A DNA stretch of 64,000 nt, taken from Cyanobacteria bacterium auto_48_18 (GTDB lineage: Bacteria > Cyanobacteriota > Vampirovibrionia > Obscuribacterales > Obscuribacteraceae). Positions 20,228-38,278 of this stretch are shown here, one piece after another; position 1 is the stretch's first letter; the number at the start of each line of letters is the position of its first letter. A program made the translations under genes and the position numbers. A model generated the notes under the pieces. That model saw only the letters and a program-made list of their open reading frames with translations, was not told the DNA's origin and did no database searches. The stretch covers positions 264,234 to 328,233 of the forward strand of contig JAVHQC010000035.1 of the NCBI GenBank assembly GCA_036170915.1. Direction: 5' to 3'.

Positions 20228-21340
20228 TCAGATACGGCCTTCGTCCGGTCGTCTAAAAGTAGATACCGGAGCAGCAACTGGCGCAGAAACCGGTTGAAGT
20301 TCTGGTTGAGCTTCGGGGGCAGGTGCAACTACCGGAGCTACTGGAGCTACTGGAATTACTGGTGTTATTGGAGCTTTTGGTACCAGAAGCAGTTTACCAT
20401 CACCGGCGATACCACCACCAGAAACATTTAAACCGGCCATGCGGAAAGCATGATCGCGTCTATCTAAGCGACTAAAATCAATCAGCGGGTTGAGTAGTTC
20501 TTGAGCGAATCGAGCAAACTTCTCCGGCTCTACAATATCTGGGCCTTCAACCTGCAAGTCTTGCAAAATAATCTTACTGTCGCCCACGAGCTCAGGGCGG
20601 GCAGTAATCTTAATAGGTACGCCAGATTCAATAGTGCCGCCCTTGGTGACAAGCACTGCTTCTAAAATAATTTTGTCGCCTACAATTTGCACTTTAGGAT
20701 TAAGCGGTTCAAGCTGCTCTCCACCCAGGCCGGGCAAGTCTAACTTCAGACCACTGAGTGACGCGGTTAAGCGAGGGCTCTTAAGCGACTGAGCCAATTG
20801 CTCTTGATTTATGTTAGCGCTAATAAGCATCATAGTTGGTGCCTTAAAACCAGGGCGCTCGCCATTTTTCTTATTTCGATAATTGACCCAAATCGGATTC
20901 TGCGAAGCCATTTTCACCTGACCAAGCTTCATGCCTTTCATCTCAGGATCATCTACTTGCACTGCCACAGATTTGACTTTACCGGCAATTAAATCAGTCA
21001 GGCTGTACGTTTTGACTTTTACTTTGACCTTGCCACCAGTTTTTTTGCGCACTGCAGCTTTGGCCACCTGGCTAGCCACCACTTCAGTGACAAAGTTGAT
21101 ACCGGTAACGGTTTGCAGGGTGCGAGAAAACTTTGAGCCGATTTTAAAAGTAGGTTTTGGTGTGGCTGTCTTAATTTCAGGCCTCTCAGCATGAATCAGT
21201 GAGTTTGCTGAATCTGCTGACTTTCCTGAATCAGCTGACTTGGCCGATGCGTCTAAAGCTGCCTGCTCGGCCTGAGCACTGGGCATCATGGCCAAAAGTG
21301 TGAGAGCAATTAAAATTTTGATGTTAGTTGATTTCGGCAA
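20228..21340 (-). CDS. LmeA/DUF2993-like exported phospholipid-binding protein
   Basis: Signal peptide ending AQA; DLIAGKVKSV-x-V pattern; Pro/Val/Ala-rich tail. Confidence 0.6.
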   Translation of the reverse strand: MPKSTNIKILIALTLLAMMPSAQAEQAALDASAKSADSGKSADSANSLIHAERPEIKTATPKPTFKIGSKFSRTLQTVTGINFVTEVVASQVAKAAVRKKTGGKVKVKVKTYSLTDLIAGKVKSVAVQVDDPEMKGMKLGQVKMASQNPIWVNYRNKKNGERPGFKAPTMMLISANINQEQLAQSLKSPRLTASLSGLKLDLPGLGGEQLEPLNPKVQIVGDKIILEAVLVTKGGTIESGVPIKITARPELVGDSKIILQDLQVEGPDIVEPEKFARFAQELLNPLIDFSRLDRRDHAFRMAGLNVSGGGIAGDGKLLLVPKAPITPVIPVAPVAPVVAPAPEAQPELQPVSAPVAAPVSTFRRPDEGRI

Positions 21341-21432: not shown

Positions 21433-22305
21433 TTAAAGGTTGTGTGGCGGCTGAGGTTGCTGCGGCTGTTGTGGCGGTTGCGGCGGATTCATTTTATTCT
21501 GCAAAGCATCTTTGAGCATTTCGTTCTGGCGCAAGAGCGCCTTCAAGTGTTCATTGGCTATAGCCAACTCAGCCTGCAGCTCAGCTACAGTTTGCTCGTG
21601 CGAGACACCAGTCACAGGGTCACGTCCGGGCATCTTAGGCAGCAGCACATAACCCAATTGAACAGCCTTCAATGCCGCCGCAGTTCGCGTAGGCACTTTG
21701 AGCTTGGCCAGAATGCACTCAATATGTTTTTCTACTGTGCGCAGCTTCATGTCGAGCTCTTCGGCAATTTCTTTGTTGCGCAAATCAAGACGAATCAGCA
21801 CTTCAATCTCTCTATCGGTGAGATTGCAGTTAGGCATATTTGTAGTCGGGGCTTGCTTAACCAGTTGCGTAATCTTGGGATCGCAATAAGGCAAACCACG
21901 TGTAATTTGTTCGATAGCTTCAAAGAGTGTGCGCGGTCCTGAGCTCTTGAGGCAAAATCCGCGGGCGCCGGCGCGCATCAGTTGATTGTGATATTTAGTG
22001 GCATGGTAAGAATCGGTCAGTACCAGCACATTGGCATTAGGCAGTTCCATGCTGACTCTGCGGCATACTTCCACGCCATTGAGAACGTCCAGATCAACAT
22101 CGAGAATGACAAAATCTGGCCTTAATCTGCGAATCATTTCAGTGGCGGCCATACCATCGGCAGCCTCACCGACAATCTCTACAACTTCAGAAACTACTCG
22201 TTTGAGACCAAAACGAATTAATTCGTGTCTCTCACAGAGCACTGTTCGAGGCCGAAAAATTGAGGGTCTTTGCGTTGAATCCAAGAGTGTCTCCCGTCTA
22301 TCCAT
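21433..22305 (-). CDS. NarL/LuxR-family response regulator with atypical acidic pocket and Pro/Gln-rich tail
   Basis: Receiver VGEAADG...ILDVDL...NGVE...K; HTH LTDREIEVL...NKEIAEEL...TVEKHI. Confidence 0.88.
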   Translation of the reverse strand: MDRRETLLDSTQRPSIFRPRTVLCERHELIRFGLKRVVSEVVEIVGEAADGMAATEMIRRLRPDFVILDVDLDVLNGVEVCRRVSMELPNANVLVLTDSYHATKYHNQLMRAGARGFCLKSSGPRTLFEAIEQITRGLPYCDPKITQLVKQAPTTNMPNCNLTDREIEVLIRLDLRNKEIAEELDMKLRTVEKHIECILAKLKVPTRTAAALKAVQLGYVLLPKMPGRDPVTGVSHEQTVAELQAELAIANEHLKALLRQNEMLKDALQNKMNPPQPPQQPQQPQPPHNL

Positions 22306-22832
22306 CTGCCCTTTGAGAACTCCATGGCTTCGCCTATTGCAGCTCGGAATTATTGTAACAGCGTGGGCAGTCCTGTCACCATCAGGGCAGTAACTTCTTT
22401 ATATACCCTATATTCTCTACGATCTAATCCTTTACTCATTTGAACGAACCCTGAGCCCCTGGGCCTTTGCGGGCGGATGGAGAAACTCACTCCACAACTA
22501 TCAATGATGAAAAGGGGCATTATCAGACGCCACCAGCGATAACGCGCAAACACACCGCATATTCAGCATATATCATCTGCAACATACTTCTGCCGGACGA
22601 GCAGAATTTTGTCTTCGCCAGCAAAATAATCTATATGGGCGCTCAAGAGATAAACTAGTAGTATCTTTCTGCTTCGCGCTAGCTAAAGCAGCTGTGTTTG
22701 GGGGAATCTTACGAGAAGCATGGGAAAAATCCCAGTAGCAGGCTATTCTTTAAATGGTTAAGCTGACCTCATAATATTTATTCCAGGCACTGATAAATGG
22801 CCACAGACCGGCGTTCTTGAATTTTCAAAGAA

Positions 22833-24941
22833 GTGATGACAACTACAGGATTTAAAATCGAAAAAAAATTTCGCGACCTGGTAATTACAACTGGCCTTGT
22901 ATTTTCCATCGCCCCTATTGTCTCGCTGACAACAGCCGCCCCCGCCCAGGCCACCAAACTCAACGCCGCACCGCTTCCCCATCGTGGAGAAGCTAATTCT
23001 GACAACCAGAATAATTGGGGCAGGCCTACCAAAAACTTTTCACAGTCGCCCGAGCGCACAGCCTTGCCTCCATCTATGTGGGAGGGAAGGCGACCTGATT
23101 ATCGCGATGAAGAAAAGCGTAAAAAACTGGAAGAAGCTGCCAATGCCGTCAAAGCAGCTGCAGAAGCGAAAAAAGCACAAGAAGCTGTCAGGCGTGCAGA
23201 ACTTGACCGCATTAATGCCGGCAAGCAATATCAACAAACCGCCATCGATGCCAATAATCGAGGTGTGGCTCTTGGCCGTCAGGGTCGCATGAATGAAGCG
23301 ATTGCGCAGCATGAGCTGGCTTGCAAATATGATCCCGGCAACAAGATGTTTCGCACTAACCTGACCAGCGCCCGCACCATTTATGGTCAGCAGCGCATGG
23401 CGCAAAAGGATTATACGGGAGCCGCTCACCTTTTTCGCAAAGCACTGACCGCCGCTCAAGACAATTCGCTGGCGGCAAAATTATTGAATGAATCAATTCA
23501 AAAAACCGGCCTTGATCCCACACTTTCTGATAATCGTGTGGGAATAGGCGATCAGTTAGCGGCATCAGGTGATCTTGATGGCGCCATGATTGAGTATCAG
23601 CAAGCCATGCAGCTTGACCCCAGCGCCCGAACCTACGTCAAAATGGGCGATATGATGTTGCGTTATGGCCAGGCACCAAATGCTTTAAGCTGGTATCGCA
23701 ACGCTGTGGTTAAAGATACAAACTATGGCCCGGCTCACAGGCAGCTCGGCATGATGTATATGATGCAGAAAGATTATGCCTCCGCGGCAGCGTCTTTGCG
23801 AAAAGCGGTAATTCTTGATTCGAAAGATGCGGCAGCTGGTCAGGCTTTAATTGATATCTGGCGCAAACAGGTCTCTATCAATCCTGAGCTGGCTGAAAAT
23901 CACCTTGGCCTGGCTGGTGCCTTTCAGCTCACAGGCGATTTTCAATCGGCCGCCGGTGAATATTTGCAAGTTGAACAGCTTGACCCGGGCAACGCAAGAC
24001 TGGCTCCAGGGCGAGAAAGTTTGCAGAGGGCAATGAAGCATACAACAGCCGAAAAACACCGAGCTGCTGCCGAAGTATTTATCAGTCAGGGTCTGGCCCG
24101 CGACGCTCTGGCTGAAATTAGTCAGGCTGTCACTGTCGAACCGCGCAATGCCCGCTATCAATTTTTAATGGGCGAAGCATTAGAAAGCGGCGGAGATGTT
24201 CAAGGGGCATTGCGAGCCTATCACACTTCAGTTTTGATCGACCCTGAAAACAACCAGGAAGCAGCAGCAAGAATGCGCGATTTGCAATCAAAGATCAATG
24301 CTGGTGCCGGTTCTAACAATAGTAATGCTGGCGCCAACAACCCAGCTAATAAAAGAAGTGCTCGCACTCTTTATGAAGGCGTGCCGCCTCAATCTAATAG
24401 TAATGCTAGTGGCGGTGGTGGTGGCGCAGCAATAAGAGAAGCCAGGCAAGAAACACCGTTTACCGGCAGCTTCCGCACTCACGACGAGTCCGGAAACCCT
24501 GTACAGATGACTAATCCAGGTGTAGGTGCCGGCGCAGGTCAGCGAACCGAAAACGCAGTCCCTCAATCATCTCCACCACCACAAGCCCGTGCTGAGAGGC
24601 CGGCCCCTGCCAATGATAAACAGACTCGCGACAGCCAAACTACAGCTACGCTTAAAGCCTGCGATGAAATGGAAATGCGCCGAGATTTTCAGGGCGCTGC
24701 CAATTTATTGCGAGAAGCACTCTCCAATAATTTGCAAAATGCTGACATTCACCACCGCCTCGGTCTGAATTTACTCAGTTCAGGTCAACTTTCCGAGTCT
24801 GTCTCTGAGCTGCGCATTGCCAGCGCGCTTTCGCCCAGCAACAAAGTATTTGTGGCTGACCTGGCTAGAGCACTGAATATACACAAACGTTCTCTTTCAT
24901 CTGATTCAGATCACGTGCAAGGAGCCAATCCCGCTCAATGA
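22833..24941 (+). CDS. Exported multi-TPR protein
   Basis: Signal-like segment ending APAQA; many TPR units (e.g. AHRQLGMMY, NHLGLAGAF, IHHRLGLNL); stop overlaps the next start (ATGA). Confidence 0.85.
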   Translation: MMTTTGFKIEKKFRDLVITTGLVFSIAPIVSLTTAAPAQATKLNAAPLPHRGEANSDNQNNWGRPTKNFSQSPERTALPPSMWEGRRPDYRDEEKRKKLEEAANAVKAAAEAKKAQEAVRRAELDRINAGKQYQQTAIDANNRGVALGRQGRMNEAIAQHELACKYDPGNKMFRTNLTSARTIYGQQRMAQKDYTGAAHLFRKALTAAQDNSLAAKLLNESIQKTGLDPTLSDNRVGIGDQLAASGDLDGAMIEYQQAMQLDPSARTYVKMGDMMLRYGQAPNALSWYRNAVVKDTNYGPAHRQLGMMYMMQKDYASAAASLRKAVILDSKDAAAGQALIDIWRKQVSINPELAENHLGLAGAFQLTGDFQSAAGEYLQVEQLDPGNARLAPGRESLQRAMKHTTAEKHRAAAEVFISQGLARDALAEISQAVTVEPRNARYQFLMGEALESGGDVQGALRAYHTSVLIDPENNQEAAARMRDLQSKINAGAGSNNSNAGANNPANKRSARTLYEGVPPQSNSNASGGGGGAAIREARQETPFTGSFRTHDESGNPVQMTNPGVGAGAGQRTENAVPQSSPPPQARAERPAPANDKQTRDSQTTATLKACDEMEMRRDFQGAANLLREALSNNLQNADIHHRLGLNLLSSGQLSESVSELRIASALSPSNKVFVADLARALNIHKRSLSSDSDHVQGANPAQ

Positions 24942-27900
24942 GTTTTTATTTTCAGGCACCAGACTTAGCTGAATTTCCACGTCGCTCTTACAGGCGTTTC
25001 CTGGAAGAAACCATCGGCAATTTATTTTCCGAAATTTCGCCTGTAGCGAGTGAATATTCCGCTCGCTTCGAACTCACTTTCATTGGCCCAGACGGTAAAG
25101 TGCACTGGCGTTTTGAAGATTATGCGCCTGATTCGGGCTATCCGACGTCGCCTGAACAAGCTCGCAAATCAAACATGACGCACTCTAAACGCATGATGAT
25201 GGAAGTGTGGTTGCGCGATACCTTGACCGGCGAATTGCGCAAATCAACCGCTTACGTAACCGACGTACCGGTGATTACAGACCGTGGTACTTTTGTTATT
25301 AACGGCTCTGAGCGCGTGGTGTTAGGTCAACTGGTGCGCGCCCCGGGCGTCTATTTCAGCCAGGGTGGTCAGACCAGCTACAAAGCGCTTTTGCTGGCAG
25401 AAATGGGTGCACCCATTGCTTTTGAATTAGAACTCGACGCTAGCGGTGGCAAAACCAGCCGGGCAAAATGCCGCATCAAATTACCTAAAAGAAGTTGGGT
25501 AGCTGCCACCACAGTACTAGCGGCGATGGGCGTCGACGCCCAAGATTTGCAAAAACGCATCGGTAGTTTGCTCGAACGCAATCGCATCGACTTTAAACCA
25601 TTAACTCAAACTGAAGCATTAGCCGTTGTTGGCCGCTCGTGGAAACCTGATGGTGGTGGTGGCGCATCTGGTGGCGCTACTGCCCTGAAAGAATTGACTG
25701 ACAGGCGCCGCTATTCCCTGGGCACTCTCGGTCGCAAACGTGTCAACGCCAAACTAGGTATTGAAGAACTATCACAGCAACTGAGTGCCGACGACATTCT
25801 GGCAGCAGTGGAATATTTACTCGGCTTACCGCTGGACATGGGCCGCACCGATAATATCGACAGTTTAGAAAATCGCCACTTGCGTGGTGTAGGCGAAACT
25901 CTCACAAAGGCTGTGAGGCCAGCACTCGGCCAAATGACCCGCTCTATTCGCACGCGCCTTGAGATGAATGAAGATGAAGAAATAGGCTCACCTAACGAGT
26001 TGCTCGATATTCGCCCCTTCTCAAATGCGCTCAATAAATATTTTGTCGGCAACCCTCTGGTACAGTATCTCGACCAACAAAACCCGCTCTCAGAGCTATC
26101 TCACAGGCGCAGAATCACGTCATTCGGACCAGGTGGTATCGACCCCAATGCAGCACCTGTAGAAATGCGCGACGTGCACCCGTCTCAAATTGGTCGCGTT
26201 TGCCTGGTAGAGTCTCCCGAAGGTAAGAATTGCGGCATGGTCTCTTATATGGCCACTTACTGCCGTATTGACGACGACGGTTTCATGACTGTGCCCTATA
26301 GAAAAGTATTCAATGGCCTGGTATCAGATGAGGTGCAATTCCTCACCCCAGCTGATGACAAACGCTTTACTCTGGCACCACCTGATACCAAGGTGGTTGA
26401 AAACAAAATTTCAGGTCCGATGGTGGCGGCCAGGCGGGGCGAGAACTTCATTGAAGTAACACCCGAAGAAGTAGACATGATCGGTATTGCCCCGCAAGGC
26501 TTCATATCGGTAGGCTCCGGGCTGATTCCTTTCTTAGAACACGACGACGCCAACCGCGCCCTCATGGGTGGTGGCATGATGCGCCAAACTCTGCCTCTGA
26601 TTCGGCCAGAGCGGCCGCGAGTAGGCACAGGTATGGAGCGTATCGTTGCTCGCTCCAGCGGACATTCCATTATTGCCAGACGAGCAGGAACGGTGACGAA
26701 AGTAACCGGCCGAGAAATTGTGGTGGCACAGTCGTCCGGCGAATCACGTTCTTATAATTTGACTAGATTTGATCGCACCAATCAGAACACCATTTTAGAC
26801 CAGAGACCGTCGGTGCAGGTAGGACAGCAGGTAGAAACAGGTCAAATTATTGCTGACGGACCAGCCATTGACTCTGGCGAACTGGCTCTGGGACGCAATC
26901 TATTGATTGCTTTCATGCCCTGGTATGGCTATAACTTTGAAGACGCTATTGTGGTGCGTGAGGGCCTGGTAAAAGATCAAAAACTAACCCACATTGAAAT
27001 TGAGAAACATTCTTGCGGCGTGCACCAAACTTTGCGTGGCCCAGAAATTCTTACCCCTGAACTGCCTAACGTCACAGCTAAAGATCTTGAGCACCTGGAT
27101 GACCGCGGCATCGCGAAAATCGGCTGTTATGTGAATCCTGGCGATATTCTTGTGGCAAAATTATCACCTAAAGAGGCTAAAGCTCTTTCAGCTGAAGAAG
27201 AATTGCTGCAAGCAATTTTCGGCAAAGTGGCTGAAGAAATGGGTGATACCAGTTTGCGTGTGCCGCACGGCTCAGGTGGCCGAGTGATTGACGTGCGCAT
27301 TTTCACACCAGAGACCACCCCTGAACTGAAGGCCGGTATCATCTGCGATATCGAAGTCTTAATCGCCCGCATGTGCCCTGTTGAAGTGGGCGACAAATTA
27401 GCTGGACGCCACGGCAATAAAGGTATTGTTTCAATTATCGTGCCCGATTGCGACATGCCCTTCATGCCCGACGGTACGCCTGTAGATATCTGTCTAAACG
27501 CCCTCGGTGTTCCCAGCCGTATGAATGTAGGCCAGGTTTTCGATACTCAACTTGGATATTACGCCAGCATTCTCAACCGCTACTACCGCATTCACCAGTT
27601 TGACGAATCGATTGCACCAGATGCATCATTCAGACTGGTTACAGACGCTCTTAAAGAAGTGCGCAAAGTGCCAGGCTATGAATGGATGGGTGAAGACGGC
27701 AAAGTAGTCTTGACTGACGGCCGCACTGGCGAGAGATTTGACCGCCCTGTGCTGGTAGGTCGGCAGTATATGCTCAAATTAAATCAGCTGGTTCTGCACA
27801 AAATTAATGCTCGCTCTGGTTTGGGTGGCCCGTATGCCGCAGTCACACAGCAACCGGTGGGCGGAAAAGCCAATCATGGCGGCCAGCGTATGGGAGAAAT

Positions 27901-28771
27901 GGAAGTCTGGGGCATTCAAGCCTATGGCGCGGCCAATATTCTGCACGAAATGATGACCATTAAGGCTGACGACATTCAAGGCAGGCACCAGTCATATGCT
28001 GACATGGTGCAAGGCAACCCACTTACGCCAGGTGGTCGCACAGCCGCTTTTGACGGTCTCTGCTGCGAAATTCGCGGCCTTGGCATGGAGATGACCCTGG
28101 GCAAGGTAATTGACTCCTTCGAACCCATTGAAGACCGCTCCTGCGCAGTACCAAATGGGACTTCTACGAAAACTCTGGAAGAGAAATATCAGGTCTCATC
28201 AGTACAGCAAATGGAGAATAACGAAGGCCAGAAAGTGCTGGAGATCCCTGCTGGGGACTTCGTTCCGGTCTCCAAGCCACCCGCCTTACCGATCATAACT
28301 TCGATGACTAGCGGAAAACACGGTGGGAAACCACGTATTGAAATGTCCCAGGAACCGTTGTTTGATGACATAGACGAAAGCGCGCAGGCGCCAGGTGATT
28401 CTTCCGCCACCGACGATTTCATCGAAAGGCTATTAAGAGAAGAAGAAGAGGAAGAGCGAAAAGCAAAGGAAACCAAAGACGGTCCGGCAAACTATCTGGC
28501 AGAAGTTCTCACCAGGGAATTAGGTGCGCAATCACCACTCAAAACTTTCCCCTCACTGAGCGAACTGTCCACACTAGCCCAACAGCTGGTGCTTGTTTCT
28601 CAAAAAGATAGCCACCCGCAAACTAATCTAGACGACCAAATCAGCGAACTTAGCGAATTCACAGAGCTAAGCGGCTACTTCAAAAAAGCAGCACAAAAAA
28701 CCACAAGTTCAACTTCAACCTTAAATACAACTGAATCGCAAGCGATTCACCAAGAAGACGACTCAAGTTAA
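24938..28771 (+). CDS. rpoB: Divergent orphan DNA-directed RNA polymerase beta subunit homolog (probable RpoB paralog) with acidic C-terminal extension
   Basis: GTFVINGSERV, DQQNPLSELSHRRR, EHDDANRALM, GYNFEDA, GDKLAGRHGNKG, GVPSRMNVGQ and GGQRMGEME motifs in canonical order; no rpoC adjacent. Confidence 0.92.
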   Translation: MSFYFQAPDLAEFPRRSYRRFLEETIGNLFSEISPVASEYSARFELTFIGPDGKVHWRFEDYAPDSGYPTSPEQARKSNMTHSKRMMMEVWLRDTLTGELRKSTAYVTDVPVITDRGTFVINGSERVVLGQLVRAPGVYFSQGGQTSYKALLLAEMGAPIAFELELDASGGKTSRAKCRIKLPKRSWVAATTVLAAMGVDAQDLQKRIGSLLERNRIDFKPLTQTEALAVVGRSWKPDGGGGASGGATALKELTDRRRYSLGTLGRKRVNAKLGIEELSQQLSADDILAAVEYLLGLPLDMGRTDNIDSLENRHLRGVGETLTKAVRPALGQMTRSIRTRLEMNEDEEIGSPNELLDIRPFSNALNKYFVGNPLVQYLDQQNPLSELSHRRRITSFGPGGIDPNAAPVEMRDVHPSQIGRVCLVESPEGKNCGMVSYMATYCRIDDDGFMTVPYRKVFNGLVSDEVQFLTPADDKRFTLAPPDTKVVENKISGPMVAARRGENFIEVTPEEVDMIGIAPQGFISVGSGLIPFLEHDDANRALMGGGMMRQTLPLIRPERPRVGTGMERIVARSSGHSIIARRAGTVTKVTGREIVVAQSSGESRSYNLTRFDRTNQNTILDQRPSVQVGQQVETGQIIADGPAIDSGELALGRNLLIAFMPWYGYNFEDAIVVREGLVKDQKLTHIEIEKHSCGVHQTLRGPEILTPELPNVTAKDLEHLDDRGIAKIGCYVNPGDILVAKLSPKEAKALSAEEELLQAIFGKVAEEMGDTSLRVPHGSGGRVIDVRIFTPETTPELKAGIICDIEVLIARMCPVEVGDKLAGRHGNKGIVSIIVPDCDMPFMPDGTPVDICLNALGVPSRMNVGQVFDTQLGYYASILNRYYRIHQFDESIAPDASFRLVTDALKEVRKVPGYEWMGEDGKVVLTDGRTGERFDRPVLVGRQYMLKLNQLVLHKINARSGLGGPYAAVTQQPVGGKANHGGQRMGEMEVWGIQAYGAANILHEMMTIKADDIQGRHQSYADMVQGNPLTPGGRTAAFDGLCCEIRGLGMEMTLGKVIDSFEPIEDRSCAVPNGTSTKTLEEKYQVSSVQQMENNEGQKVLEIPAGDFVPVSKPPALPIITSMTSGKHGGKPRIEMSQEPLFDDIDESAQAPGDSSATDDFIERLLREEEEEERKAKETKDGPANYLAEVLTRELGAQSPLKTFPSLSELSTLAQQLVLVSQKDSHPQTNLDDQISELSEFTELSGYFKKAAQKTTSSTSTLNTTESQAIHQEDDSS

Positions 28772-28781
28772 ATAGAGCAGG

Positions 28782-29738
28782 ATGAAAACCATGACAGGCG
28801 CCGGGAAAAGTCAGCTAAACAGCAAAAGCAGTTTCTGCTTGACCAACCTTCTAAGCGCCTTTTTGTTTGCTGCAGTGATTGCCCTCACTTCATCAGTCAG
28901 TGCTCAAGCCCAGTTTGGTGGCGCTCAACCACCACCCGTAGGTGACGGCAGCACTCCTGCCCCGGTCACCCCTGGCGATACTTCTGGTGGTGCCGCCGCT
29001 CCGTCGAACAGCGCTGATGCAGGCCCCGGCACAAACAATGCCATCGGCACAGGCCGCGACCGCACTGTGGTTCGCATATTCAAGCAATCGGCAGGTCGTG
29101 GCGCACGCATGGTGCAAACTTTGCGCCCTGATACTCTTTCTGATGAAGCTAGAGCCAGAATCGACGGCATTCTCGGTATCAACATGTTGTCCGGCGAACA
29201 AGCCATCGACATCACCGCTACCGATGCCCAGATTGAACAAATTCAAGAAGCGCTGGCAGCTTATCCACAGACCAGTAACAATGCCGGCCGCAAGACTATT
29301 ACTGGTGACAATCCAGCTGCTGGTTATCCAAGGCCAGGCCGCAACAGCATTTATCGCTTCGATAATCAGTTGCCTACAGTGGCCACCTTCTCTCGTTATT
29401 TAGTTATTTTAGGCGTAGTCTCGGCCACAGTATTTATGGCTCTAGCAGCCTATTCTGTGGTGATGGGTAACCCTTATGGTGGTGCCAGGGTAATTGGCGC
29501 AGCATCTGGTTTGCTCTTCTTAATGGCCGCTTACACAATCTGGAAAATTGTCACCATGAATACTTTCGGTGCCAATTCACCAGACACTGCTAGAGCTCAA
29601 AATCGAACTCAGCAAGGTCTTGTACAAGACGCCTTCATGACCAGGCCGCTCACGCCGGTGACACCTAACGGTGGTGTCAATGGTGGTGCTGCCAGAGGCG
29701 GAGTGCCGGTGCAACCATTCGGCAACGCAGGCAACTAG
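28782..29738 (+). CDS. Exported protein with C-terminal two-TM TrbC/VirB2 pilin-like segment
   Basis: Signal peptide ending AQA; YLVILGVVSATVFMALAAYSVVMG...ARVIGAASGLLFLMAAYTIW hydrophobic hairpin. Confidence 0.55.
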   Translation: MKTMTGAGKSQLNSKSSFCLTNLLSAFLFAAVIALTSSVSAQAQFGGAQPPPVGDGSTPAPVTPGDTSGGAAAPSNSADAGPGTNNAIGTGRDRTVVRIFKQSAGRGARMVQTLRPDTLSDEARARIDGILGINMLSGEQAIDITATDAQIEQIQEALAAYPQTSNNAGRKTITGDNPAAGYPRPGRNSIYRFDNQLPTVATFSRYLVILGVVSATVFMALAAYSVVMGNPYGGARVIGAASGLLFLMAAYTIWKIVTMNTFGANSPDTARAQNRTQQGLVQDAFMTRPLTPVTPNGGVNGGAARGGVPVQPFGNAGN

Positions 29739-29774
29739 TTTTAGATCGAATCATTTAAAAGGACCCGGAAGAAA

Positions 29775-30482
29775 GTGAAAAGAGTGGACACCACAAAACT
29801 GTTGAAGAGATTGAATATCTCTCTGATAGTGGCCGCCCTAGCCGGCGTGCAAGTGGCAAGCGCTCAACCTAAAAATGAATTTTTCGGCGGCAATTCCAGC
29901 ACTCCTGCACAAAAAGGTTATTCCAATTTTCAGGGTCCTGCGCCAAAAGGTCCGGCCAACGGTGTCACCGCCAAAGGTGCCGGAGCGATGGATTCTGACG
30001 CGAGCCCAGAGCTAACCTGGTTTGAAAAATTCGATGGCATTAGTTATCACGGCCGACCTACCGACTCTGAAAGAATCATTTTGAACATGCCCTTTAACCA
30101 GGAGGCAGAGCGTGTACAAAGATGGACAGCAGCTGCAAGTGCTGTTGCTAAAAGATATCGCGAAACTTCGAAAGCGCTGAAGACTCTACACGCACCTCGC
30201 GGAAGAGCTGATTTGGATGATCTCTGTTATGCACGAATTAACTGGTTTAACGATGCAGCTTTAGTTTACGAGGAGATGATTCGGCCAAGAAATCCTGCTC
30301 AAACCATTGAAGAATTGAACGACCAGTTAAGACAGGTGAAAGACCAAGCTGGTGCACTAAAAAATCAAAATGTGACAATCTTGGCCTCTGACCGAAAATT
30401 GAGGCGATTTTATCGAGTTCATGCACCAAAAGAAACCGACGCCCTTACCGGATACATCAACGGCCAATACAAAAAGAATTAG
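29775..30482 (+). CDS. Hypothetical exported alpha-helical protein
   Basis: Signal peptide ending ASA; co-oriented, 36 bp after the previous gene. Confidence 0.7.
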   Translation: MKRVDTTKLLKRLNISLIVAALAGVQVASAQPKNEFFGGNSSTPAQKGYSNFQGPAPKGPANGVTAKGAGAMDSDASPELTWFEKFDGISYHGRPTDSERIILNMPFNQEAERVQRWTAAASAVAKRYRETSKALKTLHAPRGRADLDDLCYARINWFNDAALVYEEMIRPRNPAQTIEELNDQLRQVKDQAGALKNQNVTILASDRKLRRFYRVHAPKETDALTGYINGQYKKN

Positions 30483-30565
30483 ATCACAGTTACGCAGCTA
30501 GCTACCCCACGTCCAAGCACCGCAGACCACAGCAAACCACCCCAAAACATCCGAGGACCTCTTAA

Positions 30566-31327
30566 ATGGCTATTCAGTTAAATGACAGAGACCATCTTAT
30601 TTTCAAACTAATTGATGAGCATGAGGTCTTACTTGAGAAACATATTTCGTGGTTTATTGCTGGTGAAGAAAAACCAGTCTTGATTAGAGATCGGCTGCGC
30701 AAGCTCTTCTATCTTGATTATTTGCTTTGTCATCGTCATGGCAGCAAATTGCCATGGTGGACAACTCCCACCAAGCCACTGGTTTACATGCTCTCTCCTT
30801 TAACGAGAACCATCGCTGGTGCTCCTGAAGCAGACGACACCATGCTCGATAATGAGTTCCAACGGCACCACCTCGAGGTCGCCAATCTGCGCATGCTTTA
30901 CCTGGTTGCACAAAAAGACGGCCAAATAAGTGCATTTCAGTGGACAACTTGTAAGCAAGCCAAAAACGCTGAAACAGGACTTGACGCCAAAGTCGAATTT
31001 CGCAATGGCACATCGACAACCAAAGTCGGTCTGGTCAACAATCTCGCCCTTGACCAAGCAAGTATCACCAAACTGACTCAATCTCTCGCCACTGAAGAAA
31101 TCGATTCATTGCTGCTTATCTCTCGTGATGACCTGGCGCAAAAAGCATTGCAACAACTGGTTGCTCAAGCTGGCGGAGAACTGGCCAAACGGGCATTGTT
31201 CTCGACTCACCAGGAGTTATATAGAGACGGCATTGTCGCTACCCGCTGGCAATCAGTAGCCGGCGCTGCAACGCTTAAGCCAGAAGTTGCATATATAGGA
31301 ACGATGGCTCAGCCGATTGCCGTATAG
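30566..31327 (+). CDS. Replication-relaxation (Replic_Relax)-like protein, probably degenerate
   Basis: N-terminal LNDRDHLIFKLIDEH...RDRLRKL..LDYL wHTH pattern, VYMLS and HHLEVANL motifs; GAGGA RBS. Confidence 0.55.
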   Translation: MAIQLNDRDHLIFKLIDEHEVLLEKHISWFIAGEEKPVLIRDRLRKLFYLDYLLCHRHGSKLPWWTTPTKPLVYMLSPLTRTIAGAPEADDTMLDNEFQRHHLEVANLRMLYLVAQKDGQISAFQWTTCKQAKNAETGLDAKVEFRNGTSTTKVGLVNNLALDQASITKLTQSLATEEIDSLLLISRDDLAQKALQQLVAQAGGELAKRALFSTHQELYRDGIVATRWQSVAGAATLKPEVAYIGTMAQPIAV

Positions 31328-31412: not shown

Positions 31413-31476
31413 GAAGGCTAGCATGGGGATGCTGGCCTTCGTGCTTAGGCCTTAGCCTGGCGGCTTCCAGGCTGAG
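31413..31476. other. Two adjacent strong hairpins in the intergenic region upstream of a TadG-like gene
   Basis: GAAGGCTAGCAT-GGGG-ATGCTGGCCTTC and CTTAGCCTGG-CGGCTT-CCAGGCTGAG, each with one G-U pair; no U-tract. Confidence 0.5.
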
Positions 31477-31569: not shown

Positions 31570-33633
31570 ATGACTAAAAATCAGAGAAATCTGATCAAAC
31601 GCAGGCAACGAGGCAATATGCTCGTCTTTGCCACTGCCATAACGGTCTTTCTTGTGGCCGTTCTAGCCTTCTTCAGTCTCGGTTATGTGAGACTGCTGGG
31701 CAGCAATAGCGAACAACGAAACGCGATTGAAGCGGCGTCGCTAGCAGCTGCTCGAGATTTGAGCATGATCGCAGTAGATACCGATGAGTATGGTTGGGTC
31801 TCAGTATCCGACGCGGCACCAACAGGCTCGGTAACCACAGCCAATGATGCGTACAACGTGCCAGTCAGAGGCATTAACAGCATCATCGGTACAATTCGCC
31901 TCGACTTAATTATTGCCAATGAGCTGGCCGATGCCAATCTCAAACAAATTATCAAAGCTGATTTAGTCAAGGCTAAAGCAGCCCAAGCCAAATTAGCTAC
32001 TGAACTGAAAAAAGCAATTGTGCCAGGCTATATAGCCAAAGACATTAACAATCAAAATATCAACGTATACAAAGATGCGGAAGATGCTTATACCGCTAAT
32101 CAAATTCGCATGACCGGCTCGTCTAACTATGTCAAAAATTCCCTCAAGCTGTCTCTGGGCAGTATCGCCAATGGTGGTGGCGTCACCAACACTCCGCTGC
32201 CCCGCCCCATTTCCAAAGCCAGCGTTCCAAGCGGCGGATCGCAGAATAATTTTTACCGCTCATACTTCAATCAGACTTTCGACGGAGAAGATTTTGTCTT
32301 CGCCGGCATTGGTGATGCCATCAAACTGATTGATGTAAAAAACTGGACCCCCTCTGTAGCCTCACTGCCATATCAGATGCAGACTGTTGTTAAAGCTGAG
32401 GCCGACCAACAAATGAATAATGGTCAAAGTGGACAGACTTATACCATTCATGCCATCGCATGCGCCCAGCCTGCCAACGTGGCTGATCCAAAACCAGCAC
32501 CTGGTGCACTAAGCTTCAGCTTCCCAGACGGCATACCACCTGAAATTACAAAGCCCATAGATATGTTTACCGATGCTCAACTGAACAGTGGTAATAACTG
32601 CAATGTGCAAACTTCCAAAAATGGTGACTATCCAATTGGCAAACCCACCACACAAATCGTCGATATTACCTGGCCATATCCTTCTCTAGCTGAGAGCACT
32701 GGTAATGTCTTCCGTCTAGCCCTGTTCGACTGGTGGAAAAGAGCCGGGACTAAACTGAACATTGATTCGGCAGTAACGATGATGACCGACCCCAAATACA
32801 ATTTCAACACTCCGGTGCCGGACAAAATCGATTGGAAAACTCCTGCCAAACTCGGCGACAAAACCATCTACAACTTGGGTCCTATCCCCAACGGCAACAT
32901 CCATATTTATCGAATTGATCCTGCCAGTGGTCAAATCAGCTATCAAGACAAATCACTAGCTCCAGTGCAATATAGTGTGGCCGGCAACCAACAACTGTAT
33001 TCAGAGAATATTGACGCTATCACAAAAAGCAAAGTTGGTACTCAGACTGTAGGACCATTCGAGTTTCCTAATACCGGCTATCTCGTTGATACGGTTTATT
33101 TGAAGCCAGTCTATGACGTTTATATACGTGACCAGGTACATCAACCTGGCAAAGCGCTGGGAGGTGACCACGCCGGAGAGCCGATGGATTATCCGCTAGT
33201 TTCGCAAGCCACCACCGGCAGAGATCTAGGTGGTGCCGGATTTGGTGCAGCTAAGCCACCACCCATTGACCAAAGGGCCAAGGGTTTGCCTCCAGCAATC
33301 ACTAACCAGTCAGACTTCGCTGAAACCGCTGGTTTCCCTATGAATTCGAGCTTTTACAATAACTACTCAGCTGGCCCTGGTGTGAAAAATATGCGGCCTA
33401 CTTATCAGAAAAACGGTATGGCTGTTGATGTTCGCTTTAGAAGGCAGGTTGATACAGGCACGTTCAAAGATAGTCTCGGTTTTAGCATAGGCTATGTAGG
33501 CGAAAAATATCCGCCTGGCACACCGGCGATGACTGGCATTCCGTATGTGCCACCACCCCCACCTACACCACCTGTTCCAGATCCGGCAGCGCCAGCTGAT
33601 CCAGCAGCGCCACCGGCAACACCGACACCATAA
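31570..33633 (+). CDS. Large TadG-like (Tad pilus) protein
   Basis: RRQRG followed by a hydrophobic helix, then EQRNAIEAASLAAARDL (Tad 'LQ-A-DAAALAA' pattern); Pro-rich C-terminus. Confidence 0.7.
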   Translation: MTKNQRNLIKRRQRGNMLVFATAITVFLVAVLAFFSLGYVRLLGSNSEQRNAIEAASLAAARDLSMIAVDTDEYGWVSVSDAAPTGSVTTANDAYNVPVRGINSIIGTIRLDLIIANELADANLKQIIKADLVKAKAAQAKLATELKKAIVPGYIAKDINNQNINVYKDAEDAYTANQIRMTGSSNYVKNSLKLSLGSIANGGGVTNTPLPRPISKASVPSGGSQNNFYRSYFNQTFDGEDFVFAGIGDAIKLIDVKNWTPSVASLPYQMQTVVKAEADQQMNNGQSGQTYTIHAIACAQPANVADPKPAPGALSFSFPDGIPPEITKPIDMFTDAQLNSGNNCNVQTSKNGDYPIGKPTTQIVDITWPYPSLAESTGNVFRLALFDWWKRAGTKLNIDSAVTMMTDPKYNFNTPVPDKIDWKTPAKLGDKTIYNLGPIPNGNIHIYRIDPASGQISYQDKSLAPVQYSVAGNQQLYSENIDAITKSKVGTQTVGPFEFPNTGYLVDTVYLKPVYDVYIRDQVHQPGKALGGDHAGEPMDYPLVSQATTGRDLGGAGFGAAKPPPIDQRAKGLPPAITNQSDFAETAGFPMNSSFYNNYSAGPGVKNMRPTYQKNGMAVDVRFRRQVDTGTFKDSLGFSIGYVGEKYPPGTPAMTGIPYVPPPPPTPPVPDPAAPADPAAPPATPTP

Positions 33634-36001: not shown

Positions 36002-38278
36002 TTAGCAGGGCCCGGTGGAGTCGCAAGTAGTTGTAGGAGGGCAAGCGCATCCAGGTGGCATGGTTAGAGTATCACCACCACTGCTGTAATTGATAGCGAA
36101 GGCACCAGAACCTGTTGATCCCTCAGGGCAGCAGCTCGTGCTGATAGCACCAAGGTTGATTTGACCAAGCAAATTGTTCCAGCCGCTGGCAGGTGTGAAA
36201 GAGAACCAGTTCATCAAACAAATTTTGCCCGGATAATCATAAGGCTGAGGATAGCCCCAATCTCCGGCAACGTTGATTTGAGTGAAAGGCATAAGCTCAA
36301 ATTGCCTGGTTTCGGTTGGTGAACTTGGGCTCTTAGCATCAGGCAATTGCCCGATGAAGTCACTTAACCAAGGCGAATCAGCTAATGCAGCAGATTCTGA
36401 TTTGAGCACAAGGCCGCCTTTGCCGCCATTGGCATTTGCGCTCATGTAAATATAGCCGCGACCTCCCATAGGCACCATATTCTGACTGAGAATATAATCA
36501 AGAGGACGATTTTCACTGGCGTAGATGCCAGTGTTGGCGTATTTTAGCCACTCCGGATCAATCTGATACATGCGCTGGGTCAAATAATTCCACATTGGAC
36601 CGTTCAGACTGATACCTTCTGTACTTTTGCTATCAAGGCGAACACCTTGATCGGTAGTGATGCGGAAATCAGGAGCACTGAGCACGGGACGAGTTTGTGG
36701 CACACGAGCGATACCAGACTGGTAAGTACCAGGGTGGAAATCATAACCTTCAGCCCGCTGAGTGAGCAATTGCAAGTTGACAATGTCTGCTACGTTGACA
36801 CTGGCACCGTTGCTGCCTGTAGGAGTAGGAGGCTGAATATTGTAGGCCGCTTCCAGAACAGGACGGGCCCACAAACTGCGGTTGTCAGACGAGTTGTACG
36901 CGTTCATATCTTTATTGATTTTGGCACTTGGAGTATTGAGCGCAATATTGTCTACGCCACTACCACCGATACCACCAATGTTATTGCAATTTGCTTGCGA
37001 AACTCCGCCCAGGCCAAGGCTGTCACCAGCAAGTGCATAGCCAACGCTAAGACCTGAACAATTTGGTGTTTTACCATCTTTGATATCTTGCACAATCTTG
37101 TTGAGGTAATCTTGGCCGTTGGCGGCACCACCTGGTAGCGGCGAATCATTCATACCAACGAAATATGGCAGCGGCTTGCCGTTGATGTCGGAAGGGTAGG
37201 CCTGCGGATTGTTCATGGTGTAGACAAAAACATCAGCACTGTTATTGCCGGCTACACCTGTTGTAGGCGACGCAGCACCATTTTGAATGCGGATGAAGCC
37301 GTGCGGCAAAGCTGCAGCGAAACCGACTGGATCAATGGGTTCAACCAGAGCATATGCATTGAAGCCGCCGTTATATCCTTGTGTCGATTTAGCCTGGGCC
37401 CTCAATGAAAGGGCATTGGGCACTGGCTTTGTCCAGCTAAAGGCATTGGCGCCGACTGAGGCTTTGTCATTTTGATCAAAAGCCAATTGAGGCACCAGGT
37501 GCGGTTTGGCACCAGGCTTGAGAGGAACAAAATAAGTATTGGCAAAATTGGCCGCAGGAGCCATACCTTCAAGGTAACCCTTCAAATAATTGTGAGGTGT
37601 ACCGCTCGAGTCAAGATGGGAGTTTACAGGTAAAACCCAGCCACTGACCTTGTCGTTGTAGATTTTGGAACTTTTAGTGGTGAAGTTATAGTCTGGCATC
37701 GCTGAAGCAGAAATGTAGACGTTGGAAGGCTGAGTGCGGTCCATATAAGAGAATGTCGGCGCACCTAAAGGAGCAATGTCTTCGCTGCCGAATTGTTTAG
37801 TCGGATTGAGTTTGGCTATGGAGCTGAAGAAGACCTGCACTGACGATGGCTTGGCCAGCTCATCACTAAGCGATTTACCTAGTTGCTGAGACACTGTCGT
37901 AATTTGGGCGGCGTGAGAGTTGGCACCTTGATCAAGACCATCAGCAGCAATCTTGTGAGCATTGAAATTGATGATCAGAGCCTGCGCCATCACCCTGTTG
38001 ATGTTGCGCAAGTTGATGACACCATGCGCGCCCATTGTGTGATCACTGACACCGTTAAATTGAACTTGATCGCCAGTGTTGGCCAGTGGCACTGCCACTT
38101 TTACCAGTACAGAGCGGGCGAGAGAAAGGTTACCGGCATCGGTAGCACGCTGCATCTGCTGGCCACCACCAAGCAAGTTAATCAGCGCAATTGCCGCCAC
38201 GATAATGACAGTTAGAGCCAGTATAAAAGCTGTTATCAGCACCAATGATGCTGCACGCTGCTTTCTCTTCCGTTCCAT
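36002..38278 (-). CDS. Large TadG-like protein with Cys-rich C-terminus
   Basis: RKQRAA + hydrophobic helix + QMQRATDAGNLSLA; AGGT RBS-like sequence upstream. Confidence 0.7.
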   Translation of the reverse strand: MERKRKQRAASLVLITAFILALTVIIVAAIALINLLGGGQQMQRATDAGNLSLARSVLVKVAVPLANTGDQVQFNGVSDHTMGAHGVINLRNINRVMAQALIINFNAHKIAADGLDQGANSHAAQITTVSQQLGKSLSDELAKPSSVQVFFSSIAKLNPTKQFGSEDIAPLGAPTFSYMDRTQPSNVYISASAMPDYNFTTKSSKIYNDKVSGWVLPVNSHLDSSGTPHNYLKGYLEGMAPAANFANTYFVPLKPGAKPHLVPQLAFDQNDKASVGANAFSWTKPVPNALSLRAQAKSTQGYNGGFNAYALVEPIDPVGFAAALPHGFIRIQNGAASPTTGVAGNNSADVFVYTMNNPQAYPSDINGKPLPYFVGMNDSPLPGGAANGQDYLNKIVQDIKDGKTPNCSGLSVGYALAGDSLGLGGVSQANCNNIGGIGGSGVDNIALNTPSAKINKDMNAYNSSDNRSLWARPVLEAAYNIQPPTPTGSNGASVNVADIVNLQLLTQRAEGYDFHPGTYQSGIARVPQTRPVLSAPDFRITTDQGVRLDSKSTEGISLNGPMWNYLTQRMYQIDPEWLKYANTGIYASENRPLDYILSQNMVPMGGRGYIYMSANANGGKGGLVLKSESAALADSPWLSDFIGQLPDAKSPSSPTETRQFELMPFTQINVAGDWGYPQPYDYPGKICLMNWFSFTPASGWNNLLGQINLGAISTSCCPEGSTGSGAFAINYSSGGDTLTMPPGCACPPTTTCDSTGPC

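Follow-up and report, generated by a model that had tools for sequence, protein, structure and literature searches.

A second, highly diverged RNA polymerase beta subunit of the Obscuribacteraceae, encoded in an envelope-protein operon whose promoter box recurs at a conjugation-like locus

Bacteria are thought to retune a single core RNA polymerase by exchanging sigma factors, and to our knowledge the described duplicates of rpoB, the gene for the beta subunit, differ by few residues. For the second copies in Nonomuraea gerenzanensis (rpoB(S)/rpoB(R)) and Nocardia farcinica (rpoB2) it has been proposed that they enter an alternative RNA polymerase and so redirect the transcription programme; five substitutions mark the duplicate, with H526N as the central one (PMC5431353). 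Here we describe a second rpoB (rpoB2, product beta2) in a five-gene operon of Cyanobacteria bacterium auto_48_18, a member of the Obscuribacteraceae (Cyanobacteriota; Vampirovibrionia; Obscuribacterales). The window analysed is a stretch of 64,000 nt (GenBank assembly GCA_036170915.1, contig JAVHQC010000035.1, positions 264,234 to 328,233, forward strand); coordinates are given in Table 1, and beta residues are in E. coli numbering. The locus resembles the actinomycete cases in that there are two rpoB genes per genome and the second is a proposed subunit of an alternative polymerase. It differs from them in that beta2 is only 43% identical to the canonical beta (over 1059 columns), keeps H526 in 17/17 sequences, carries fixed changes at 44 invariant positions, is core to its family, and belongs to an envelope operon with a box in common with a type IV secretion system (T4SS) locus. 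On identity and H526 we rejected beta2 as a near-identical duplicate of the actinomycete type. Plant Pol IV and Pol V offer a parallel by analogy only: their second-largest subunits are likewise duplicated, fast-diverged core subunits that keep catalysis and have lost DNA-facing elements, but these enzymes are eukaryotic, have both large subunits duplicated and serve RNA silencing. The reading that we prefer, with about even confidence, is that beta2 is an inducible alternative beta subunit that would build a second RNA polymerase for a contact or transfer programme.

The five co-oriented open reading frames (ORFs) named in the first-pass annotation were recovered, as were the ATGA overlap of the TPR stop with the rpoB2 start and the 10-bp and 36-bp gaps that follow downstream. 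Pfam recognised six RNA_pol_Rpb2 domains in the RpoB homologue, five of which exceed the cut-off, and the protein passed both NCBIfam rpoB models (TIGR02013, 1013 bits with a cut-off of 801; NF001616, 1057 bits with a cut-off of 896). A gene that passes annotation cut-offs in this way can distort rpoB-based trees and marker counts. It is not the sole rpoB: a separate canonical rpoB-rpoC1-rpoC2 locus is found on contig C16 of the source genome (C1, C20 and C33 below are further contigs of it), and the C16 copy holds the housekeeping place before rpoC that beta2 does not. Two full rpoB, one rpoA and one rpoC1 were counted in this genome; the search for matching subunit paralogues gave no second rpoA or rpoC1 there, and 12 sigma-70 region-2 matches. 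The sigma factors (six of group 1/2 in appearance, two of SigF type and four of extracytoplasmic function type, on contigs C22, C35, C36, C16, C30 and C6) are candidate beta2 partners. Since the source genome is 86% complete, the copy-number points rest on relatives too, and rpoC1 is single-copy in 5/5 near-complete relatives.

We examined the distribution of beta2 with its first 600 residues as query. Matches of at least 71% identity were found in 77/83 genomes of the Obscuribacteraceae and 0/2 of the second family of the order, and one of the six misses in the first family (G009) has a contig-edge beta2 fragment at 98%. With an E-value limit, which we chose to shut out canonical copies, beta2 was detected in 63/67 genomes of the Obscuribacteraceae, 0/2 of the second family and 0/231 genomes of other orders. 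In a wider set of 120 genomes from the phylum no match exceeded 45%, and six genomes gave none at all. One genome of the second family, G027, carries beta2 along with genes 4 and 5 and a copy of the box. We concluded that beta2 is a core gene of the Obscuribacteraceae and, because of these counts and the G027 copy, that it probably goes back to the order's common ancestor.

The gene order is conserved as well. The operon was compared in 37 fetched loci out of about 80 known: the order TPR-rpoB2-gene 3-gene 4-gene 5 is complete in 32, four of the other five are cut by contig ends, and one (G050) is without gene 3, so that the neighbours are not random. The TPR stop and rpoB2 start form ATGA in 27/36 loci and are at most 4 bases apart in 35/36, and a NarL-type response regulator is present and divergent in 32/37, with 83-96% identity. 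By a simple hydropathy test, hydrophobic N-termini were found in 33/37 TPR proteins and in 33/34 and 32/35 orthologues of genes 3 and 4, and in none of the gene 5 (0/35) or beta2 (0/38) proteins.

Ten beta2 pairs gave a ratio of nonsynonymous to synonymous substitution (dN/dS) of 0.018-0.10, with 0.018-0.031 for the least saturated pairs, compared with 0.017-0.076 in five pairs of the canonical copy; beta2 is under strong purifying selection, like the canonical copy. Codon adaptation placed beta2 at the 81st percentile and the housekeeping subunits at 96-99, a hint of lower expression of beta2. A very long branch, a relaxase-like neighbour and damaged-looking copies in two genomes (G050 and G052) could suggest a decaying remnant, mobile-element cargo or a binning artefact. 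We regard this as scarcely credible: it is largely refuted by distribution, synteny and dN/dS, the promoter is conserved too, the operon contig is 328 kb long with genome-like GC content, and beta2 is present in the single-contig genomes G003 and G041. The damaged-looking copies are apparent interruptions of beta2 in G050 (L067) and G052 (C254:80831-82635), attributable to decay or assembly error. In G020, a genome with 8% contamination, there are two beta2 loci (L005 and L006), each with a regulator, a box and a TPR gene, which may reflect duplication or a mixed bin.

Next to these signs of maintenance stands a selective pattern of residue change. Unchanged in 17/17 beta2 sequences are E813, D814, K1065, K1073, R1106 and Q688, which we take to be catalytic or RNA-binding residues, together with Q513, D516, H526, R529, E565, R151, D446, R451 and R1269. 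Fixed in the same 17/17 are W183P, Q510P, S512V, S531T, L533F, T563S, N684G, Q686M, H1237Q, D1240L, D1241H and H1244N; all 17 also have a glycine-rich gate loop, a fork loop 2 without R540 and R542, and a flap tip of changed charge (K900E, R903Q, E908K, K909V) with its hydrophobic face retained. D199P is less certain, as it adjoins an insertion. An alignment of 42 canonical betas has 240 invariant positions; in 10 beta2 sequences, 163 of these are retained, 44 have a new residue common to all ten and 33 are variable. The changed positions make up 37/78 in the lobe and fork regions versus 11/70 in segments 591-830 and 1058-1240 of the catalytic barrel. Functions are reported for two of the altered elements: W183 acts in unstacking the +1 base of the non-template strand, the flap tip in binding sigma 4 (PMC5101437), and W183A lowers promoter-complex half-life to 0.19 of wild type with elongation unchanged (PMC4499132). 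As judged from alignment, the pattern is that of a probably working enzyme with altered promoter handling, H1237Q and the reworked end of the clamp being the points of doubt about its activity.

Two other explanations start from the same residues. The first, which the first-pass annotation had raised together with a transferred beta, is that beta2 is a non-productive decoy that binds alpha, beta-prime or sigma and shuts down housekeeping transcription in its own or a target cell. The change of invariant residues near the RNA or active site in all copies (H1237Q, T563S, N684G, Q510P) and the alteration of 77/240 invariant positions would fit such a role; however, a mere decoy should lose the metal-binding, nucleoside triphosphate-binding and RNA 3'-end residues, which are intact in 17/17, and 31/37 invariant positions of segment 1058-1240 are intact too, so we consider a decoy unlikely. 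The second is a rifamycin-resistance or stress copy comparable to Nocardia rpoB2 or Nonomuraea rpoB(R). S512V, S531T, L533F and I572V are fixed at what are presumably rifamycin-pocket positions. A duplicated rpoB with such a role has been described, in the portion of the source available (PMC5431353), but in beta2 the changes span the whole protein, Q513, D516, H526 and R529 are retained, the gene is core throughout the family, and the operon partners and the box-linked T4SS are unrelated to drug resistance. This explanation appears very improbable.

The evidence that ties beta2 to a proposed wider programme comes from the promoter. In the aligned upstream regions TGGGA-N4-TACGA and TGGGA-N4-CCCCA lie 20 bp apart and are followed directly by TAGACT-N16/17-TAAGCT; at least the downstream box is present 5' of the TPR gene in 35/36 loci. 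The operon promoter escaped a generic promoter scan, which performed at chance level (10 found, 9.0 expected). In a scan of the source genome for the box itself, the operon box was the top score, and four intergenic sites scored at least 18 (this operon, C33:173955, C16:104588 and C20:148779), with none in two shuffles. The box pattern matched 37/37 genomes of the Obscuribacteraceae, one to six times each, with 0 matches for the reversed control and in 0/9 genomes of other orders. A site was found no more than 16 kb upstream of a VirB4-like gene in 29/37 genomes and on a different contig in six; two had none. Another 22 sites were examined: a conserved 78-aa gene follows 17 of them, a gene for a helical protein follows four, and something else follows one. 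The small protein (78-79 aa; L089:3289-3525 on C16) is highly conserved, belongs to no Pfam family and is present in 5/5 further-checked genomes; the helical protein has 893 aa on C20 (L088:2993-5671) and shorter relatives of 341-346 aa in G080 and G084. The NarL-type regulator is the likeliest candidate for binding the tandem box, and gene 5 or the C33 relaxase could be an alternative binder by analogy with TraX on direct repeats.

The distant boxed locus on C33 looks like a conjugation system. It has genes for a VirB4-like ATPase (P-loop_TraG, E 4e-16) and a coupling protein (T4SS-DNA_transf, E 4e-18), and a true Replic_Relax gene is found at 212 kb on the same contig, so that ATPase, coupling-protein and relaxase genes are all represented, as in a conjugative T4SS. 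Between 172 and 196 kb the contig also carries exported proteins, four tandem near-identical pilin-like genes, and VirB6-like, PrgI-like and VirB8-like genes; the pilin-, VirB6- and PrgI-like labels are by appearance only (no Pfam match), and the VirB8-like label goes back to TraE at E 0.02. The VirB4-like gene was detected in 67/67 genomes of the Obscuribacteraceae, 2/2 of the second family and 0/231 genomes of other orders, and the true Replic_Relax gene in 43/44, 1/1 and 0/105, respectively. The gene order upstream of VirB4 is kept in 17/18 relatives' loci examined, with G025 differing. The PF03135 profile gave no match in 5/5 genomes although two VirB4-like genes, recognised by context, occur. 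Compared with the T4SS modules of integrative and conjugative elements and plasmids (VirB4, VirB6, PrgI/VirB3, VirB8, VirD4 and relaxase), the C33 locus has the VirB4-like, coupling-protein and Replic_Relax genes in common, but it is chromosomal, syntenic and core to the order, and has its box in common with an RNA polymerase subunit operon. The first-pass annotation had also considered a domesticated remnant of a conjugative element: the machinery does look domesticated from a conjugative system, but the low dN/dS, about 0.02-0.04, speaks against a remnant. A serpin gene (L087:6475-7611) lies directly 3' of the coupling-protein gene in the source genome. A second core T4SS-like locus on C1 (L091:1086-18162) carries a VirB4-like gene of 936 aa, two large membrane proteins and an adjoining divergent paralogue of the operon TPR gene; the genome scan gave no box site at it.

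In the mechanism that we propose, an activator would bind the tandem box beside the -35 element, the divergent NarL-type regulator being the likeliest candidate, and would switch on the operon, the conjugation-like T4SS locus and two further genes, all of which have the box in common. The operon would then supply beta2, three envelope proteins and, from gene 5, a winged-helix pseudo-relaxase at the same time, as gene order and overlap suggest. Because the cell has one alpha and one beta-prime, beta2 would pair with these existing subunits to form a second core enzyme. This enzyme is expected to stay catalytic and, given its rebuilt elements (lobe, gate loop, fork loop 2, flap tip), to open promoters and pick sigma or cofactors differently; it may transcribe a programme-specific gene set during cell contact. 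The first-pass annotation had suggested a subunit-swap polymerase for a contact or developmental programme, and the box common to the operon and the distant T4SS-like locus lends support to that suggestion. Several observations weigh against the proposal. A common box means co-regulation and does not prove that beta2 transcribes the boxed genes, and the box pattern was drafted after the sites in the source genome were known and then tried on genomes that are kin. Searches of G025 and G026 (94% and 88% complete) yielded VirB4 and the box but neither beta2 nor gene 5, so the T4SS may function without beta2; no match to the regulator was obtained in G025, and in G026 regulator and operon are unlinked. 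Finally, catalysis or the binding of beta-prime could suffer from H1237Q, D1240L, D1241H, H1244N, N684G and Q686M and from the reworking of the C-terminal clamp segment.

A different use for the same parts is that beta2 serves transferred DNA, its enzyme priming or transcribing single-stranded DNA moved by the T4SS, with gene 5 as a possible adaptor and beta2 perhaps passing to the partner cell. Plasmid primases travel to the recipient during conjugation. Some relaxases bear primase domains required for transfer, as stated in the available part of PMC12857230. The beta2 changes concentrate in elements that grip the non-template strand, with RNA-facing and catalytic residues remaining, VirB4-like, coupling-protein and Replic_Relax genes are present at the co-regulated locus, and gene 5 has a relaxase-like fold without the nuclease motif. 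However, beta2 retains R151, D446 and R451 of the core recognition element pocket as well as the hydrophobic flap-tip face, in keeping with double-stranded promoters and the use of sigma; neither a secretion signal nor, with no search aimed at it, an oriT was identified, and transfer of DNA by the C33 T4SS is hypothetical. We therefore regard this use as doubtful. Equally tentative is the broader picture in which the Obscuribacterales would run a domesticated chromosomal conjugation-like programme with a polymerase of its own: an activator would turn on a T4SS along with beta2, and the beta2 enzyme, altered where it grips the non-template strand, would transcribe or prime the transferred single strand, possibly after entry of beta2 into the partner cell.

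As for its descent, beta2 has the domain set, insertion-free architecture and catalytic residues of the canonical cyanobacterial-type RpoB, and differs from it in lying away from rpoC and in four remodelled elements, namely the lobe, the gate loop, fork loop 2 and the flap tip. It is without the lineage insertions of outgroup betas, as is the beta of the cyanobacterial lineage, and its best PDB match is a cyanobacterial-type RpoB (8syi_C, 891 bits). In a beta tree (27 rows out of 52 sequences) beta2 joined the Cyanobacteriota (SH-aLRT 97) on a very long stem of 4.45 changes per column. We did not trust this long-branch position and rejected an origin at the base of the phylum, as sister placement to the order's own canonical copy was not rejected (approximately unbiased test, p-AU 0.51). 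Beta2 shares 10/27 class-specific, 0/30 Cyanobacteriia-like, 7/32 outgroup-specific and 1/12 order-specific residues, where the group labels are our guess from the tree. A within-lineage duplication of rpoB followed by a burst of change is the likely origin. Phage or plasmid origin was rejected: the best matches in phage and plasmid collections were ordinary host rpoB at about 40%.

The first-pass annotation described gene 3 as VirB2/TrbC-like and the last gene as Replic_Relax-like. Gene 3 does have a signal peptide and a hydrophobic hairpin, but it gave no VirB2/TrbC match: none of nine sequences matched PF04956 or PF18895 at E up to 10, a search with the pilin-like family of the organism itself did not list the gene in any of five genomes (E up to 1), and hhalign returned a probability of 0.5%. 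These profile results give the pilin assignment no support. Profile and structure searches gave no family or fold match; the AlphaFold2 (AF2) model is of low confidence (pLDDT 56) and matched generic hairpins only. The N-terminal part weakly resembles two genes of the C33 T4SS locus (E 6e-6 and 8e-5). Profile searches gave no family match for gene 4.

For gene 5, a remote kinship in fold held up and an active relaxase did not. The fold matches have modest scores (VIA Z 8.3 for R.BspD6I2, with a root-mean-square deviation of 4.0 and 125 aligned, Z 8.0 for FokI and Z 7.6 for the winged helix of RosR), and the ESM Atlas placed the protein in a Replic_Relax cluster (0.94). PF13814 was above its cut-off in 0/77 members, one distant member reaching 20 bits (cut-off 25.3), and the small family of 28 clusters at 50% identity includes one of true Replic_Relax. 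Across the 77 homologues the consensus on the second core strand is GIxNH in place of the acidic ExD/ExE motif, which we assume to be the relaxase-type catalytic motif and which is present in P0148 and the C33 protein. Gene 5 is probably a remote, nuclease-dead relative of Replic_Relax. MOBC relaxases such as pAD1 TraX combine a winged helix with a restriction-endonuclease-like fold, in the portion of PMC12857230 consulted. Gene 5 resembles them in its N-terminal winged helix and restriction-endonuclease-like fold, and differs in its missing Pfam match and replaced ExD; the true family member sits at the C33 T4SS locus.

The literature searched yielded no counterpart of an alternative polymerase core subunit coupled to a transfer system that has been domesticated. 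By titles and abstract starts, with subscription journals outside the scope, no such system was seen for rpoB paralogues or T4SS of Obscuribacterales, Melainabacteria or Vampirovibrionia; the part of the RpoB text of PMC8047818 that was available mentions no such paralogue and does not use the name Obscuribacter. If beta2 were merely a generic alternative beta, it would be of the same kind as the actinomycete duplicates. At 43% identity, family-wide and with dozens of invariant sites changed, beta2 is a natural experiment on the elements of promoter opening and sigma choice, and it is open to in vitro study with cyanobacterial-type subunits. The common box points to an undescribed core secretion or transfer programme in an uncultured sister lineage of cyanobacteria and may be a clue to its lifestyle.

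Table 1. Features of the beta2 operon and of the co-boxed locus (window coordinates unless a contig or locus is named; G000, source genome).
Feature	Position	Strand	Basis
NarL/LuxR-type response regulator, divergent; candidate operon activator	21433..22305	-	Pfam Response_reg and GerE
Tandem operator: two 14-bp imperfect palindromes, TGGGA-N4-(TACGA / YCCCA), 20-bp period	22701..22734	+	Alignment of upstream regions, genome scan
Putative sigma70-type promoter abutting the operator: -35 at 22736-22741 (family consensus TAGACT), 17 bp, -10 TAAGCT at 22759-22764	22736..22764	+	Upstream alignment
TPR protein, predicted exported, 702 aa; stop overlaps rpoB2 start	22833..24941	+	Pfam TPR families, N-terminal hydrophobic stretch
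beta2, second RNA polymerase beta subunit, 1277 aa (~1060-aa core and variable tail)	24938..28771	+	Pfam, NCBIfam, alignment
Gene 3: signal-peptide protein, small alpha/beta domain and conserved hydrophobic helical hairpin	28782..29738	+	Alignment, AF2 model
Gene 4: predicted exported, probably helical, no known family	29775..30482	+	Hydrophobic N-terminus in 32/35
Gene 5: near-invariant winged helix and PD-(D/E)xK-like domain without ExD motif	30566..31327	+	Alignment of 77 homologues, fold matches
Stem-loop 3' of gene 5, likely end of the unit	31451..31476	+	Consensus scan only
Promoter-like site for Tad-like gene, after the stem-loop	31483-31511	+	Consensus scan only
T4SS-like locus on C33; Replic_Relax gene	G000 C33:172000-196400 (L086/L087); L092:2293-3054		Sequence and Pfam

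The surroundings of the operon contain further conserved genes. Tad pseudopilin genes had been said to follow it, and a Tad-like ORF does begin at 31570 (Pfam Tad, E 0.003, under the cut-off), but it hardly belongs to the unit, as it occurs in only 9/37 loci and has its own promoter-like site behind the stem-loop. Large Tad/TadG-like proteins are encoded at 31570-33633 and 36002-38278 of the window, with at least four paralogues in the genome and tandem copies in several relatives. Behind the regulator, an LmeA-like gene at 20228-21340 is syntenic in most loci.

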